A DNA stretch of 64,000 nucleotides, taken from the NCBI GenBank assembly GCA_018240285.1, contig JAFEGA010000003.1, positions 18,097 to 82,096 on the forward strand, in the 5' to 3' direction. A model generated the notes under the pieces. The model was not told the origin of the DNA, searched no databases, and was given only the letters and a program-made list of their open reading frames with translations. A program made the position numbers and the translations under genes. This document shows, one piece after another, positions 14,595 to 21,954 of this stretch (position 1 is its first letter; each line of letters opens with the position of its first letter). Source of the DNA: Pseudomonadota bacterium (GTDB lineage Bacteria; Pseudomonadota; Gammaproteobacteria; Burkholderiales; Nitrosomonadaceae).

Positions 14595-15285
<691 letters not shown>

Positions 15286-15326
15286 TAGCGGTTCGCTAGA
15301 TCTCCGGCAATGGGGGGAAGTTTGGT

Positions 15327-15360: not shown

Positions 15361-15466
15361 GTACCGTGAGCTGCCATGCGCTCATCGGCAAAAATGACTT
15401 GTGGCAATTTTGTGCTACAACCGAGGCTTTTGGAGACCAACCGAGACTAATCGGTCATTTCTGGGG

Positions 15467-15486
15467 GAAGGCGGGATTCGAACCCG
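15467..15486 (-). repeat. att repeat: displaced 3' part of tRNA-Ser
   Basis: GAAGGCGGGATTCGAACCCG, identical to 21870-21889 within tRNA-Ser, with degenerate similarity extending either side. Confidence 0.9.
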
Positions 15487-15591
15487 TGGCAATATTTGAT
15501 ATATCAATCATTTATTGTTTTCCTTTGCTATTTTTGTGTCATTTAAAATTATTCTATAGCAGCGTCCAATAAGCACGAATTGAATGGCGAA

Positions 15592-16467
15592 TTAGACACT
15601 TCTCTGCTTAATAACGTTTACTAACTTTCTTGCTAATTCTTCAATGCCTAAGGATGAGCTTAGACTGACTTTGTCTGCCAATCTAGGGCTGTATTCATAC
15701 ACGTCATTAACATTAACGTTGTGCCAGATTGGAAGTATCACATTTGACTTTTTAAGTATTTCCCTTGTAAAGACAGAATCAAATTCTGCTTTACCCCAAC
15801 CCTCGTTGGATAGGAAGTTTGGAGACAAAATAACGATACATTTCTGAGTTTCTTTCAAGCCCTTCTCGATGCTAGCCCGGAGGCTGTCGCCAACTCTTAA
15901 AGAATACTCATCATACCAGACAGGACACATGAGTTTTGACATTTCAAGAGCAAGTTCGCGAGCTAGTGCGTCCTTGTCTCGAGAGTCATGGGAGATGAAA
16001 GCTAATGGCTTTTCAAGCTCAGATCTTATCATGGCATATTCCTTATCTCTTACCAAAACATAAAAACCATGAGCTGCTCCAAGTTCAGTGATGTGCTTTC
16101 TGTCCGCCTGATTTAAGCAGTGGTCAACATAAAAGTTAATTCGCTTGGTAAATAAAAGTGTTTCAGAGCTGGCTCTTTCAGAATAAGAAGGAAATCCACT
16201 TTCTATGCGGGTAGTATCACCCTCTGAGGTTAATACGCATTTATTGGTTTCTTGCAAAGAGAATATTACATTGGCGTATCCAAGAATATCTTCTATACCC
16301 TCTGATAGAAAAAAAGACCAGTACTTTGCATTTGCATCGAAATCTTTAGAGATTCTTGCCAGAATAGATTGATGCTGCGTTCCAGATTGGTCAATCACTT
16401 GCCAATTTTTATGCAGAGAGAAGCACTTGTTCAAATCTGTATCAAAATATTCTCTTAGTGTCGCCAT
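15592..16467 (-). CDS. TIR-domain protein with unrecognised ~150-aa N-terminal domain
   Basis: C-terminal AFISHDSRDK, VWYDEYSLRVGDSL, IVILSPNF, WGKAEF (catalytic Glu) and ILPIWH; likely start is ATG 16467 (ORF from 16491). Confidence 0.9.
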   Translation of the reverse strand: MATLREYFDTDLNKCFSLHKNWQVIDQSGTQHQSILARISKDFDANAKYWSFFLSEGIEDILGYANVIFSLQETNKCVLTSEGDTTRIESGFPSYSERASSETLLFTKRINFYVDHCLNQADRKHITELGAAHGFYVLVRDKEYAMIRSELEKPLAFISHDSRDKDALARELALEMSKLMCPVWYDEYSLRVGDSLRASIEKGLKETQKCIVILSPNFLSNEGWGKAEFDSVFTREILKKSNVILPIWHNVNVNDVYEYSPRLADKVSLSSSLGIEELARKLVNVIKQRSV

Positions 16468-16539
16468 ATGATTTCTCTGCAAAAGTGGCATACTTGAACC
16501 GCTGGCTATGAATGAAGGTGAATCCCTTGCAACTCATTG

Positions 16540-16983
16540 TTATGCCTTTTTTACAACAAACAGAAACGGCTTGATGCCGGTGACCATGGATTCATTCAAC
16601 TGCGTAAGGATATTCTCTACCTTTGCAGCTTCTTCTAGCTTAAAATCGATAGGCAACTTAATAGCTTGTTTTGCAATATCTTGTACTGCTTTTATAGATG
16701 CGATTTTATTGTTAAAATTCTTTTTGTCGTGCTTTTTTTCCTCATCATTCCATGACACCTGCATGTTCTTTGCGTTTAAGTGCTTCGCGCGAGCAACATG
16801 TACATGGCGTTGCTGCTTTAATGCGGGATCTTCAGCATCTACCCGTAGCATCCAATCCTTTTTTCTAGATGATACCCATCGCCCTTCATTGATGAGCACA
16901 TTTCCTGGGATCAGCTCCTGTGACACCTGCAGAATGAAGTAATCGATTCCTTCTTCACTCCGAAATTCTTTAAACGACCGCAC
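16540..16983 (-). CDS. Hypothetical 147-aa protein with RHVH...SWN...HD motif
   Basis: GTG start with AAGGAG SD 5 nt upstream and TATAAT at 17013-17018; intact; co-oriented with and 72 bp from the TIR gene. Confidence 0.8.
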   Translation of the reverse strand: MRSFKEFRSEEGIDYFILQVSQELIPGNVLINEGRWVSSRKKDWMLRVDAEDPALKQQRHVHVARAKHLNAKNMQVSWNDEEKKHDKKNFNNKIASIKAVQDIAKQAIKLPIDFKLEEAAKVENILTQLNESMVTGIKPFLFVVKKA

Positions 16984-17131
16984 GATTTCTCCTTGTTCGG
17001 CATAATAAGTAATTATACAGATCCAGTATCGGTGAATCGGTGTCAGATCTAGAATGAAGAATTATCCATTTTTATCAAGTGGAAAGGAGTAATCATAGGG
17101 TGCAGACTCGATTGATATTAGCCAGTGTTAT

Positions 17132-17506
17132 TTAAACATTATTTATTTGATTGGATTGTTTAATCAAAGACTCAGCAGGAATACCAAGTTCATGATGTAG
17201 TTTCCAGATCATTTTGAGTGTCAGAGAGCGTTTGCGATTTAATACTTCATACACACGGTTACTTTTCCCGATCATTGGTTCAAGGTCTTTGACTGTTAAG
17301 CCTTTCTGCTCCATTTCAAATTTAATCGCTTCGACGGGATCGGGGAGGTCAAGTGGAAAGTGCTTATACTCATAGGCTTCGATCAGCGTTACCAGAATAT
17401 CCAGTTTTTCACCTTCCGGTGTGTTGGGTTCGGCCGTCATGAGCGATTCCGCTTCTTTTAGTGCTGCGCGATAATCGGCATCAGTTTTGATAGGTTTGAT
17501 ATTCAT
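17132..17506 (-). CDS. higA: HigA-type antitoxin (HTH Xre)
   Basis: IKPIKTDADYRAAL...LVTLIEAYE..HFP...DPVEAIKFEMEQ...VYEVLNRKRSLTLKMI; start ATG 17506. Confidence 0.9.
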   Translation of the reverse strand: MNIKPIKTDADYRAALKEAESLMTAEPNTPEGEKLDILVTLIEAYEYKHFPLDLPDPVEAIKFEMEQKGLTVKDLEPMIGKSNRVYEVLNRKRSLTLKMIWKLHHELGIPAESLIKQSNQINNV

Positions 17507-17523
17507 GTTAGGTGTTCCTAGTG

Positions 17524-17826
17524 CTAAATCGTTTGTGTATCGATTTGATCGTATTGGGCATGTGTTCCGATGAAACGGATATAAACGATGCTGTAAGCGT
17601 AGTTGATCCATACTACTAGCCGGTATTTATTACCGGCAATATTGAATACGACTCTGGCGTCTTTCAGGATGCTGGCATTTTTGAAATCCGCCTTGACTTC
17701 CACGGGTGTTGCCCAGTTAGCCTTTAATGTATGTCTGTACCAAGCGAGTGTAGGCTGAATTGCATCGGCGTAAGACGAATCATCTTTCCAGAATGCCTTC
17801 AAGGTAGACAGAGCAATAATTCTCAT
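17524..17826 (-). CDS. higB: HigB-type toxin (RelE-like mRNA interferase)
   Basis: MRIIALSTLKAFW...W.TPVEVKADF..AS...RVVFNIAGNKYRL...FIGTHAQYD; upstream of higA. Confidence 0.92.
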   Translation of the reverse strand: MRIIALSTLKAFWKDDSSYADAIQPTLAWYRHTLKANWATPVEVKADFKNASILKDARVVFNIAGNKYRLVVWINYAYSIVYIRFIGTHAQYDQIDTQTI

Positions 17827-17862: not shown

Positions 17863-18705
17863 CTATTTTGATGAAGGAATCCATCGCCCATACACTTTGA
17901 TGATCATTCCCCAGTCTTTATGCCCCATTTGCTTGGCAACATCCATGTAGTGTGCCCCCCTTGAGAGCATAGTCGACGCGAAGGTGTGTCGGGTTTGATA
18001 TGGGTTGCAGTAGCTGATGTTGGCTTGATTCAGTGCCGGAATCCAGACTTTCTTGTGGATCGGTTGATCGTTTCTCCATGGCTGATGGGTATCCGGGTCG
18101 TGAAAAACAGTTTCATTCTGTTTTTTTGTGAAAGCCTGCTGATTGAGCAGCGCTTCTCTGGCTTGCGGCTGTAATGTGACTTCCCGTTTCCCCGATTTGG
18201 TTTTGGTGTCTTTCAGCTGTCCGCGAACGTAAGCGCTGCTAACAAATATCCGGTTGTTTTCAAAGTCTACATCCTGCCAGAGAAGCGCGATTAGTTCGGA
18301 AGTCCTGAGACTTGAATAAAAGGCGAACTGAATCAGGTTTTTTGCCTGGCCGGTCAGTTCGTTCAAGATTTTTGTTACTTCCTCTTGTGTGAACGGCTCA
18401 GGTTCGCGGGTTTCTTTGGGCAGATTCTTAACTCTTATTAGCGGGTTTTTATCGATGATTTCATCATGGCATAGCTCATCGAACATTTGGCGCAGTGGAA
18501 TAAGGATGTTGCCTTTGCGCTTGTTGGAACAAGGGAGTTCCGACAGCCATTCCTTGATTCTACTTGCAGTCAGTTCGGCAATAGGCAGATCGCCAAAAGT
18601 GGGGATCAAGTGATAATAAATCGCGCTGTTGTAGTCTTGTAGCGTGCCTTTCTGCTGTTTGGCTTGGTTGCGTTGCAGCCAGCTTATTATTGCTTCTTTA
18701 ATCGT
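17863..18705 (-). pseudogene. Tyrosine integrase, N-terminally truncated
   Basis: LRTSELIAL, LKDTKTKSG, NPYQTRHTFAS and QMGH catalytic motifs; the frame stays open upstream (…WLQRNQ…LQDYNSAIYYHLIP) but has no Arm domain or start. Confidence 0.85.
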
Positions 18706-19060: not shown

Positions 19061-19492
19061 ATGGCATCAGTCAATAAAGTAATCCTCATCGGCAACTTGA
19101 GTAAAGACCCGGAAACTCGTTATATGTCGAATGGTGATGCTGTTACCAATATCACATTGGCAACGACTGATACCTGGAAAGACAAGAACGGTGAGAAGCA
19201 GGAAAAAACCGAGTGACACCGCGTTACTTTTTATCGAAAACTTGCTGAAATTGCAGGTGAGTACCTAAAAAAGGCCGTTCTGTTTATATCGAAGGCAGGC
19301 TTGAAACTCGCAAATGGACAGACAAGCAAGGCATTGAGCGCTACCATAGATATCATAGCAACCGACATGAAAATGCTTGGCAGCAAACCGCAAGGCCAGT
19401 AATCAGAAAGCAATCCCACCACTCCAAAAGCTGGCGCAAGCGGCGGTAATGATAGCGGGTTTGATGATATGGATGATGATATTCCGTTCTGA
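19061..19492 (+). pseudogene. ssb: Single-stranded DNA-binding protein, disrupted
   Basis: [17 protein letters not shown]...KTE*HRV...; premature TGA, frameshifts, and C-terminal DDMDDDIPF. Confidence 0.92.
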
Positions 19493-20440: not shown

Positions 20441-20842
20441 ATGACCAATTACGTCACCATAAAAAAATTCTGTGCCGATACAGGATATTCACCTGATGCT
20501 GTTCGGTCAAAAATTTCACACGGTGACTGGGAAATCGGTAAAGAGTATATTAAGGCTCCGGACGGAAGAATTCTAATCAACATTGAAGGTTTTGAAAAAT
20601 GGGCGGAAAGTACCCCTGGCGTTCGAGAATCCAGCGAATCATCGATTGAAATCGATATCCGTTACAACGGTAAGTGCTGCCGTGAACGTCTCGCACTTAA
20701 GCCCACCCCCTCTAACTTGAAGAAAGCCGCGCAGCACCGAGCGGCGATTTTCAACGCATCGATGCCGGAACATTTGACTATGCGTACACATTCCCGAAAT
20801 CAAAAAACGCGCACAAATTCGCGCCATCGCAATACACCGTAA
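20441..20842 (+). CDS. Excisionase-like protein; C-terminus altered by a frameshift into the integrase frame
   Basis: YVTIKKFCADTGYSPDAVRSKI...KAPDGRILINIEGFEKW, typical of phage Xis immediately before int. Confidence 0.7.
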   Translation: MTNYVTIKKFCADTGYSPDAVRSKISHGDWEIGKEYIKAPDGRILINIEGFEKWAESTPGVRESSESSIEIDIRYNGKCCRERLALKPTPSNLKKAAQHRAAIFNASMPEHLTMRTHSRNQKTRTNSRHRNTP

Positions 20843-21745
20843 AAACCTATCTCACCGAATGGCTGGAAAATAAACGACCGGTGCTGAAGGCCAGCACACA
20901 CAAAGACTACACAAAAACGCTGCTGAATATCATCGTGCCGCGCTTTGGCGCCACACTGCTGCACATGCTCACCCGCAACGATATCCGGCAATGGATCGCC
21001 ACAGTGGATTGCTCGAATAAACGCATCGCAAACATACTCAGCCCGCTTCGCGCCGCACTGCAAGACGCGCATCATGACGACCTGATTCAGTCAAATCCGC
21101 TGTTCAATTGGACGTATAAACGCAACGAGCACCGCCGCAGAAAATGCACGTTGACCCGTTTACACAGGACGAACAGCAAGCAATCATGGAAACCGCAACC
21201 GGACAAATCCGGAATCAGTGCATCGCATTTTTTTGGATAGGCATGCGCACCAGCGAATTGATCGCGCTGGAATGGACAGATATAGACTGGAAGCGTAAGA
21301 AAATCACAGTGAACAAAGCACTCACAACGGCCGCAGACTCGGACGAAACCACAAAAACAAAAACCGGAACGCGCGAAATCGACATGCTTGCGCCGGTAGA
21401 ACAAGCACTCATCGATCAGAAACAATACACGCTATTGCAAGGCAGAAAGATTTTTTTGAACCCGGCAACAGGGAAAATATGGACGGGAGATCAGCAGATC
21501 AGGAAAACTTTCTGGATCCCGTTATTGAAAAAAACAAAGGTTAGATACCGTAACCCATACCAAACGCGCCACACCTACGCATCCATGATGCTATCGGCCG
21601 GTGAGAATCCGGCATGGGTTTCAAGTCAAATGGGACACTCAAACATCATGATCACGCTGCGAACATACGCGCGATGGATACCCAGCGATAACAGCAAGGC
21701 GGCAAAGCTCTCAAGATGTTTTTTGCAAAAAACGCAGAAAAGTAA
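20599..21745 (+). pseudogene. Tyrosine integrase with Arm-type N-terminus, multiply frameshifted
   Basis: MG.KY(P)GVR..SESSIEIDIRY...RERLALKPT, then MRTSELIAL, TKTKTG, YRNPYQTRHTYAS and QMGH spread over at least 4 frames; points toward tRNA-Ser. Confidence 0.9.
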
Positions 21746-21862
21746 CAACAAAAAGACCGAAGATTTATCAGCCATACTGACCAAAACATGCAAAAAGATG
21801 ACCAATTATGACAAAATACAGTCATTATTTTGTATGTAAGTAATTGATAAATAAGTAAATGC

Positions 21863-21954
21863 TGGCGGAGAAGGCGGGATTCGAACCCGCGGTACGGTTT
21901 GAGCCGTACACACGCTTTCCAGGCGTGCACCTTCAACCACTCGGTCACTTCTCC
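21863..21954 (-). tRNA. tRNA-Ser(GGA)
   Basis: GGAGAAG/CTTCTCC acceptor stem, anticodon loop CTGGAAA, long variable arm, GGTTCGAATCC, encoded CCA. Confidence 0.97.

Follow-up and report, generated by a model that had tools for sequence, protein, structure and literature searches.

SpbK and AbTir offer the closest described points of comparison for the locus considered here. SpbK, of Bacillus subtilis ICEBs1, is a single-protein abortive-infection system in which docking of the N-terminal domain on the phage portal brings about the clustering and activation of a C-terminal TIR NADase (PMC12847820). AbTir, a protein of 269 aa, comprises a coiled coil (residues 27-118) and a TIR domain (residues 134-267), and the product of both AbTir and TcpB is the cyclic ADP-ribose (cADPR) isomer 2'cADPR; in AbTir, little or no activity remains with the substitution E208A, G174A or S176A, and activity is lowered by W204A (10.1101/2022.05.07.491051). 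The present locus lies in a 64-kb stretch of a Nitrosomonadaceae contig (JAFEGA010000003.1, positions 18,097 to 82,096 of the forward strand; assembly GCA_018240285.1), hereafter the window, and consists of a gene for a 147-aa protein followed by a gene for a 291-aa protein with a TIR domain. On balance, and with moderate probability, we read it as a self-contained SpbK-like sensor-TIR NADase accompanied by a separable accessory gene of the DUF6367 family, both carried as cargo of a decayed island. A new obligate two-gene defence system is probably not what the pair represents.

The TIR protein is built of an N-terminal alpha/beta domain (residues ~1-153) and, at its C-terminus, a TIR domain (residues ~156-291) that contains W224xxxE228 within a W224-G-K-A-E228 motif. 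Pfam recognizes TIR_2 (E=1.7e-13, 51.6 bits against a cut-off of 28), with the TIR_2 and TIR matches falling within residues 165-265. A profile search of the PDB returns AbTir (E=1.5e-38, 44-46% identity), BtTir, BtpA/TcpB and PdTIR at E-values between 1e-28 and 1e-38, and Foldseek retrieves BtpA, PdTIR and AbTir at E ~1e-9 with a target TM-score of ~0.8, matches by which the TIR domain is assigned to the AbTir/BtpA/PdTIR clade. In the HMMER alignment, E228, W224, G193 and S195 correspond to AbTir E208, W204, G174 and S176. These four residues are invariant in an alignment of 26 family sequences, and W224, E228 and G193 are invariant in all 71 family members compared, so that the catalytic glutamate of WxxxE, which the original prediction for this locus had pointed out, is a constant feature of the members compared. 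Since all the residues essential in AbTir are kept, the enzyme is very probably active once assembled.

The likeness to the AbTir clade thus covers the TIR match itself, the catalytic Glu and Trp, the BB-loop Gly/Ser and the general architecture, in which a non-TIR N-terminal part precedes a C-terminal TIR domain in a protein of ~270-300 aa. The difference lies in the N-terminal part, which is a coiled coil (27-118) in AbTir and a ~153-residue alpha/beta domain here. With SpbK, the protein appears to share the logic of a single polypeptide that joins an N-terminal domain to a C-terminal TIR domain; however, the N-domain of SpbK is a 94-residue four-helix bundle, its products are ADP-ribose (ADPR) and N1-cADPR, and SpbK is not among the PDB profile matches of the TIR protein at E<=0.01, which leaves no detectable sequence relationship between the two. 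By analogy, the TIR gene would belong to a known kind, that of AbTir-clade TIRs with variable N-domains, PDC-S66-like in its database matches and SpbK-like in its logic.

Among PADLOC models the TIR protein matches PDC-S66 best (E=3.5e-45, 152.7 bits), with an alignment confined to model positions 151-281 of 282; ThsB1 comes next (E=1e-33), likewise aligned over the TIR half only, and distant family members show the same partial PDC-S66/ThsB pattern. PDC-S66 is a single-gene, unvalidated PADLOC candidate, and the match marks the TIR clade, not the full-length family. Judging by titles and abstracts, the papers found to mention PDC-S66 appear to be genome surveys. Proteins that fuse DUF1883 to a TIR domain 42% identical to that of the window are found on the Shigella plasmid pMO17_54 (L111:1909-3459) and on ~110 other enterobacterial plasmids; on pMO17_54 the DUF1883-TIR gene stands divergently beside a second, ThsB-like TIR gene. 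These proteins, too, match PDC-S66 through the TIR half only, and the N-terminal half of the PDC-S66 model seems to be uninformative. Weak matches restricted to the TIR domain are also obtained with the SAVED_TIR and Aga_TIR-PNTD (TIR-PNTD1-PNTD2) models.

The N-domain is predicted by AlphaFold with high confidence (predicted local distance difference test, pLDDT, ~90) as an alpha/beta fold of five strands and four helices, and a profile search with this domain alone retrieves TIR fusions and fragments, with no fusions to other effectors. The complete protein yields 6606 matches in a protein search; the best 120 of them measure ~285-310 aa, cover 96-97% of the query at 60-99% identity, and are named from Stanieria, Vibrio, Sneathiella, Pseudoalteromonas and Legionella, that is, from cyanobacteria, gamma- and alphaproteobacteria among others. 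A scan of one genome per species gave 80 loci of the TIR family in more than 15 phyla, in which residues 1-290 are matched at 36-69% identity and the N-domain profile detects the N-domain in every locus (80/80). The family occurs in free-living environmental bacteria, including metagenome-assembled genomes (MAGs) from sludge, sediment and marine samples, and the annotated plasmid and phage collections contain TIR-domain-level matches with no full-length member. By these searches, the N-domain defines a very large, horizontally spread family and is not rare, and the earlier view of it as a novelty gives way to an architecture of full N-domain plus TIR that recurs across many phyla at 36-85% identity.

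The two halves of the protein differ in pace. Compared pair by pair, N-domains share on average 28% identity and TIR domains 59%, the latter being higher in 100% of 2485 pairs, and the ratio of nonsynonymous to synonymous substitution rates (dN/dS), measured against L088 (the one further copy of the pair, see below), is 0.48 for the N-domain, 0.20 for the TIR domain and 0.33 for the whole gene. The much faster evolution of the N-domain fits a specificity or sensor role, and this domain probably confers specificity. The idea of a defence-type, NAD-cleaving TIR with a specificity-giving N-domain, already put forward in the original prediction, is therefore plausible on the AbTir-clade residues and the fast-evolving N-domain.

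In the model that we favour, the NADase activity, the sensing of a trigger by the N-domain and the role in phage defence are all drawn by analogy with relatives. The TIR protein would be held inactive until its N-domain engages a trigger, which is probably a protein or assembly of a phage. Binding would cluster the TIR domains head-to-tail so that the active site forms, and NAD+ would then be cleaved to nicotinamide and ADPR and/or a cADPR isomer, by homology most likely 2'cADPR. The resulting NAD+ depletion would lead to abortive infection. DUF6367 would merely lie upstream of the TIR gene in this island lineage, and the TIR protein would not depend on it.

The genomic surroundings of the TIR family are in agreement with such autonomy. 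A six-frame hmmsearch finds no DUF6367 within 6 kb of any of the 80 TIR loci, and the result is the same with a 109-sequence DUF6367 profile; three further lineages on metagenome contigs (71-73% identity) likewise have no DUF6367 nearby. Clustering of the neighbours by BLAST yields no conserved family, the largest non-TIR cluster reaching 5 of the 80 loci. When the 150 genes directly adjoining the TIR genes of these loci are scanned with Pfam and PADLOC, the set proves heterogeneous, with scattered defence genes (AriAB, Gabija, AbiL, PDC-S35, AbiD, Cas1 and a type I methyltransferase) and many housekeeping genes. The clearest lone TIR gene (L114:4001-4870, 72% identity) has inserted by itself between purH/purD/hemF on one side and prmC/prfA/hemA on the other, and mobile-element genes are absent from its surroundings to a distance of 4 kb. 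In another locus (L115) the TIR gene lies between GmrSD and patatin genes, and the 147-aa protein encoded upstream of it is not a DUF6367 member. The lack of DUF6367, the lack of a recurrent neighbour and the existence of solo copies argue that the TIR family is an autonomous single-gene unit. As a side observation, three neighbour clusters (c3, c5 and c15) are common to the surroundings of the TIR genes in a MAG labelled 'Woesearchaeota archaeon' (L037) and an Aliarcobacter MAG (L038), which suggests binning contamination or very recent transfer.

None of the multi-gene TIR systems accounts for the locus. ThsB models match the TIR half, but no ThsA model matches any of the window's open reading frames (ORFs) of 100 aa or more, nor is ThsA recurrent among the 150 immediate neighbours. 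Within the same set of window ORFs, models for the cyclases, SAVED, STING and Argonaute proteins of CBASS, Pycsar and SPARTA find nothing. The earlier placement of the pair outside Thoeris, CBASS, Pycsar and short pAgo systems is in line with these searches, which give no ThsA, cyclase or Argonaute match in the window.

The absence of such partners also bears on the possibility that the TIR protein acts chiefly by generating a signal and not by depleting NAD+, in which case it would produce 2'cADPR or another ADPR-derived signal for a distant receptor, like an orphan ThsB acting in trans. The strong match to the ThsB model and the proximity to the 2'cADPR makers AbTir and TcpB speak for it, SIR2-SLOG ThsA effectors are described as responding to 2'cADPR and 3'cADPR (PMC11204291), and a distant receptor has also been raised by the authors of the SpbK work (PMC12847820). 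Another point in its favour is a gene for a 164-aa 2',5' RNA ligase/2H-phosphoesterase (PF13563) located 95 nt past the TIR gene in L112 and L113 (L112:1549-2043, L113:1322-1816), which form a single lineage with a TIR protein 73% identical to that of the window; this enzyme could conceivably process cADPR-type products. However, neither ThsA, SLOG or macro proteins nor any known receptor are present in the 64-kb window or recur in the 80 loci, a gene so mobile across many phyla cannot rely on a host-encoded receptor, and one copy (L114) lies inserted by itself among housekeeping genes. We regard this alternative as possible, although unlikely.

A true two-gene system, at least in this island lineage, would give DUF6367 the part of co-sensor, antitoxin-like inhibitor or second effector, and the organization of the pair is what makes the idea attractive. 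Both ORFs are intact and co-oriented on the minus strand. As listed, the TIR ORF spans 15592-16491, but translation properly begins with the ATG at 16467, because all homologues begin there and an upstream ATG in L088 meets an in-frame TAG. The GC content is 0.400 in the pair, 0.430 in the island and 0.488 in the window, and these values, together with the ORFs and the AAGGAG, confirm the earlier description of two intact, co-oriented, AT-rich genes behind a TATAAT box and a Shine-Dalgarno sequence; a canonical -35 is absent upstream of the TATAAT box. The genes stand 72 nt apart, and in this spacer a consensus scan detects no promoter-like or terminator-like site, RNA folding is unremarkable (z=0.58, no stable fold), and the only Rfam overlap is a chance-level, opposite-strand match to the eukaryotic GABA3 family (E=0.88). 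As the spacer holds no terminator, promoter or RNA structure, co-transcription is plausible, and the DUF6367 and TIR genes are probably co-transcribed in this island. In RNA data, a few low-depth contigs from two runs touch both genes and leave 16500-16540 unbridged, and one RNA-run contig covers 16883-17033. These contigs fit expression weakly; as proof of an operon they are insufficient, and they may stem from DNA carry-over.

L088, the sole further copy of the pair, encodes proteins 79% (DUF6367) and 85% (TIR) identical to those of the window. Its DNA can be aligned with the window over a stretch that opens ~35 nt upstream of the DUF6367 start, takes in both genes and the spacer, and closes at a tRNA-like attachment (att) fragment, beyond which the sequences diverge; the TATAAT and AAGGAG region is conserved, and the sequence farther upstream is not. 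The 50 nt before the TIR start (window:16468-16520) show one mismatch to L088, compared with 86-90% identity in the flanking coding DNA, and this near-identity is not accounted for by any promoter consensus, RNA fold or Rfam family. The shared promoter region, genes and att-adjacent position argue for common descent and not for an independent association: L088 is the same island family at a different host site. Relative to L088, dN/dS is 0.34 for the DUF6367 gene and, as given above, similarly low for the TIR gene, which indicates purifying selection and the maintenance of both genes.

The single promoter-like region, the absence of a terminator, the near-identical spacer and the purifying selection on both genes can all be counted in favour of a two-gene system, as can an independent DUF6367 lineage with a TIR-type gene and the frequency of co-oriented genes downstream of DUF6367 (both described below). 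The comparative evidence runs the other way. DUF6367 is missing from all 80 reference-genome TIR loci and from the three further lineages, its own downstream genes are unrelated and mostly not TIR, it also occurs alone, and L088, as the same island family, supplies no independent case. The claim of a conserved two-gene system is thereby contradicted, and co-occurrence of homologues, which had been proposed as a check on it, is essentially nil for this TIR family, with the caveat that the other DUF6367 lineage lies 23 nt upstream of a PDC-S35 TIR gene. We consider it rather unlikely that the two genes constitute one system.

The 147-aa protein is indeed a full-length member of DUF6367, as had been suggested earlier: PF19894 matches it with E=5.2e-41 and 140.2 bits against a cut-off of 25, over model positions 6-139 of 142. 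The RHVH...SWN...HD signature noted earlier is present and its core residues are conserved family-wide, the conserved positions being W36, R47, H60, H62, Q75, W78, H85, D86 and F90. This His/Asp/Trp core suggests, from conservation, a metal or ligand site. A word-indexed search finds 15 close relatives and an exhaustive profile search 224 cluster representatives, nearly all of ~150 aa, and the ten longer representatives contain no other Pfam domain. No mention of DUF6367 was found in the searched literature. Against the PDB there is no sequence match, even for a 109-sequence profile at E<=10, and the AlphaFold2 model is poor (pLDDT 59.6), with Foldseek searches of PDB and BFVD giving noise. 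With no function-assigned Pfam, PDB or fold match, assignment to a nuclease or to any known fold was rejected, and the nuclease effector role once envisaged for the small protein finds no backing there. A relationship to DUF4160, which has a similar-looking HxH, was also discarded (hhalign probability 0.05).

The contexts of DUF6367 were examined in about 16 lineages, whose downstream genes have no relationship among themselves and for the most part are not of TIR type. DUF6367 follows parA/parB and precedes a NADAR gene on a 196-kb contig, precedes HigB/HTH genes, follows Gabija near ApeA, sits beside a methyltransferase/helicase locus on a Sphingomonas plasmid, and is found alone between insertion sequence (IS) elements on an Acinetobacter plasmid; distant members occur in viral contigs. 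On the 196-kb contig, which is plasmid- or phage-like (L004:7048-9241), DUF6367 begins 6 nt after parB and is followed by the NADAR gene (NAD/ADP-ribose metabolism) and then by many small ORFs. The 264-, 492-, 235- and 203-aa proteins encoded downstream of DUF6367 have no Pfam or PADLOC match and no similarity to one another. In about half of the lineages a co-oriented gene lies within ~140 nt downstream, and in two of them that gene is of TIR type, namely in the window and in L090-L093/L098; the TIR family of the window itself accompanies DUF6367 in its own island family alone among these lineages. In the latter (L090:62-4120), DUF6367 is followed after 23 nt by a gene for a 260-aa CAP12-type TIR protein, matched almost full-length by PADLOC PDC-S35, and then by SIR2_2 and HerA genes, all co-oriented, so that DUF6367 may head a SIR2-HerA locus in that lineage. 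Taken together, these contexts identify DUF6367 as a small, independent accessory gene carried by mobile elements.

From these two TIR adjacencies a further proposal can be made, namely that DUF6367 is a small modulator of TIR-type NAD+-cleaving enzymes, for instance a stoichiometric inhibitor or a product-binding protein. In islands it would check a neighbouring TIR effector, the window TIR and PDC-S35 being two independent cases, and the phage and plasmid copies of DUF6367 would act as counter-defence against TIR immunity. If so, the window pair would be an effector-plus-regulator cassette and a route to a new family of anti-TIR proteins, although we hold this to be quite improbable.

Very improbable, finally, is a TIR protein without an anti-phage role, whether as a Tcp-like effector directed at the host, as an enzyme of NAD-RNA decapping or NAD metabolism, or as a toxin that serves the island in addiction or competition. 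In its favour, the closest relatives of solved structure, BtpA/TcpB, are described as effectors against host Toll-like receptor signalling, bacterial TIR proteins including AbTir are reported to remove nicotinamide from NAD-capped RNA (PMC10937652), and many ordinary housekeeping genes neighbour the 80 loci. Against it, the family is spread through many phyla among bacteria that live freely in the environment, neither a secretion signal nor a secretion-system context was seen, and the fast-evolving N-domain and the island and defence contexts better fit an arms-race sensor.

Several points weigh against the reading of a self-contained sensor-TIR NADase with a separable DUF6367 gene. The defence role and the NADase activity of the TIR family would be extrapolations from its relatives, no experiments on the family were found in the searched literature, and the enrichment of defence genes around it appears modest. 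The TIR half of the AlphaFold2 model is only moderately confident (pLDDT ~65), and the ~153-residue N-domain has no profile relative in the PDB and nothing convincing in the Foldseek list outside the TIR matches. Concerning the separability of DUF6367, the shared promoter region, the absence of a terminator and the purifying selection on both genes leave room for a lineage-specific functional link. Only the adjacency in the L090 lineage speaks for a connection of DUF6367 with TIR enzymes; this second case exceeds what is expected for random genes, and, since defence islands are home to both families, it counts as suggestive but falls short of being decisive.

The relevance of the locus resides mainly in its TIR protein, which represents a very large family that crosses phyla, keeps all the AbTir catalytic residues and carries an uncharacterised N-domain. 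If it is SpbK-like, it would rank among the most widespread single-gene TIR abortive-infection modules and its N-domain would be a new phage-sensing fold. A link of DUF6367 to TIR enzymes, for which the case is thin, would be new biology if true. In annotation, it would be wrong to enter the pair as a new two-gene system.

The pair is located in an interval of ~6.4 kb between two att repeats, which constitutes a degraded integrative element (Table 1). The direct repeat corresponds to the last 36 nt of tRNA-Ser(GGA), and its 19-nt core occurs twice in the window versus 0.03 occurrences expected; the position originally assigned to the pair, at the distal end of such an element, is borne out by this repeat.

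Table 1. Features of the gene pair and of the island that hosts it (positions in the window)
Feature	Position	Strand	Remarks
IS3-family transposase remnant	14645-15290		beyond the distal att repeat; HTH_Tnp_1, HTH_21 and rve pieces in three frames
Distal att repeat	15464-15499		copy of the tRNA-Ser(GGA) 3' end, ~90 nt past the TIR stop codon
TIR gene	15592-16467	-	291 aa, two domains, start MATLREYF
Intergenic spacer	16468-16539	-	72 nt, DUF6367 gene to TIR gene
DUF6367 gene	16540-16983	-	GTG start, 147 aa; conserved RHVH...QVSWN...HD core
Upstream control region	16984-17020	-	TATAAT at 17013-17018; AAGGAG 7 nt 5' of the GTG
HigB/HigA pair, intact	17132-17826	-	HigB 17524-17826; HigA-like helix-turn-helix antitoxin, probable start M36 (~17506) to 17132
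Second tyrosine integrase, truncated	17863-18609	-	catalytic part only, 248 aa, TTG start; Pfam Phage_integrase E=1.9e-21
Single-stranded DNA-binding protein (SSB) fragment	19061-19216		51 aa
Integrase remnant	20441-21839		adjoins the tRNA; split over several frames; Arm-DNA-binding and catalytic pieces
tRNA-side repeat copy	21867-21902		direct repeat of 15464-15499
tRNA-Ser(GGA)	21863-21954	-	tRNA end of the island

Of the earlier statement that all phage genes of the element are broken, the part concerning the integrases and the SSB gene stands, but the HigBA pair of the island is intact. HigBA is recognized by Pfam (HigB_toxin, E=1.9e-30, and HTH_3) and is a neighbouring type II toxin-antitoxin cargo of the island, outside the TIR unit. 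PADLOC matches HigB in full with PD-Lambda-2_A, and HigA with PD-Lambda-2_B over positions 1-123 of 402 only. PD-Lambda-2, a three-gene system with a ~400-aa B protein, was rejected in favour of an ordinary HigBA on account of this partial match and since no third gene was seen; automatic annotators might over-call the pair as PD-Lambda-2. Lastly, the 6.4-kb island holds two tyrosine-integrase remnants with only two att copies, which suggests the tandem accretion of two elements followed by decay.

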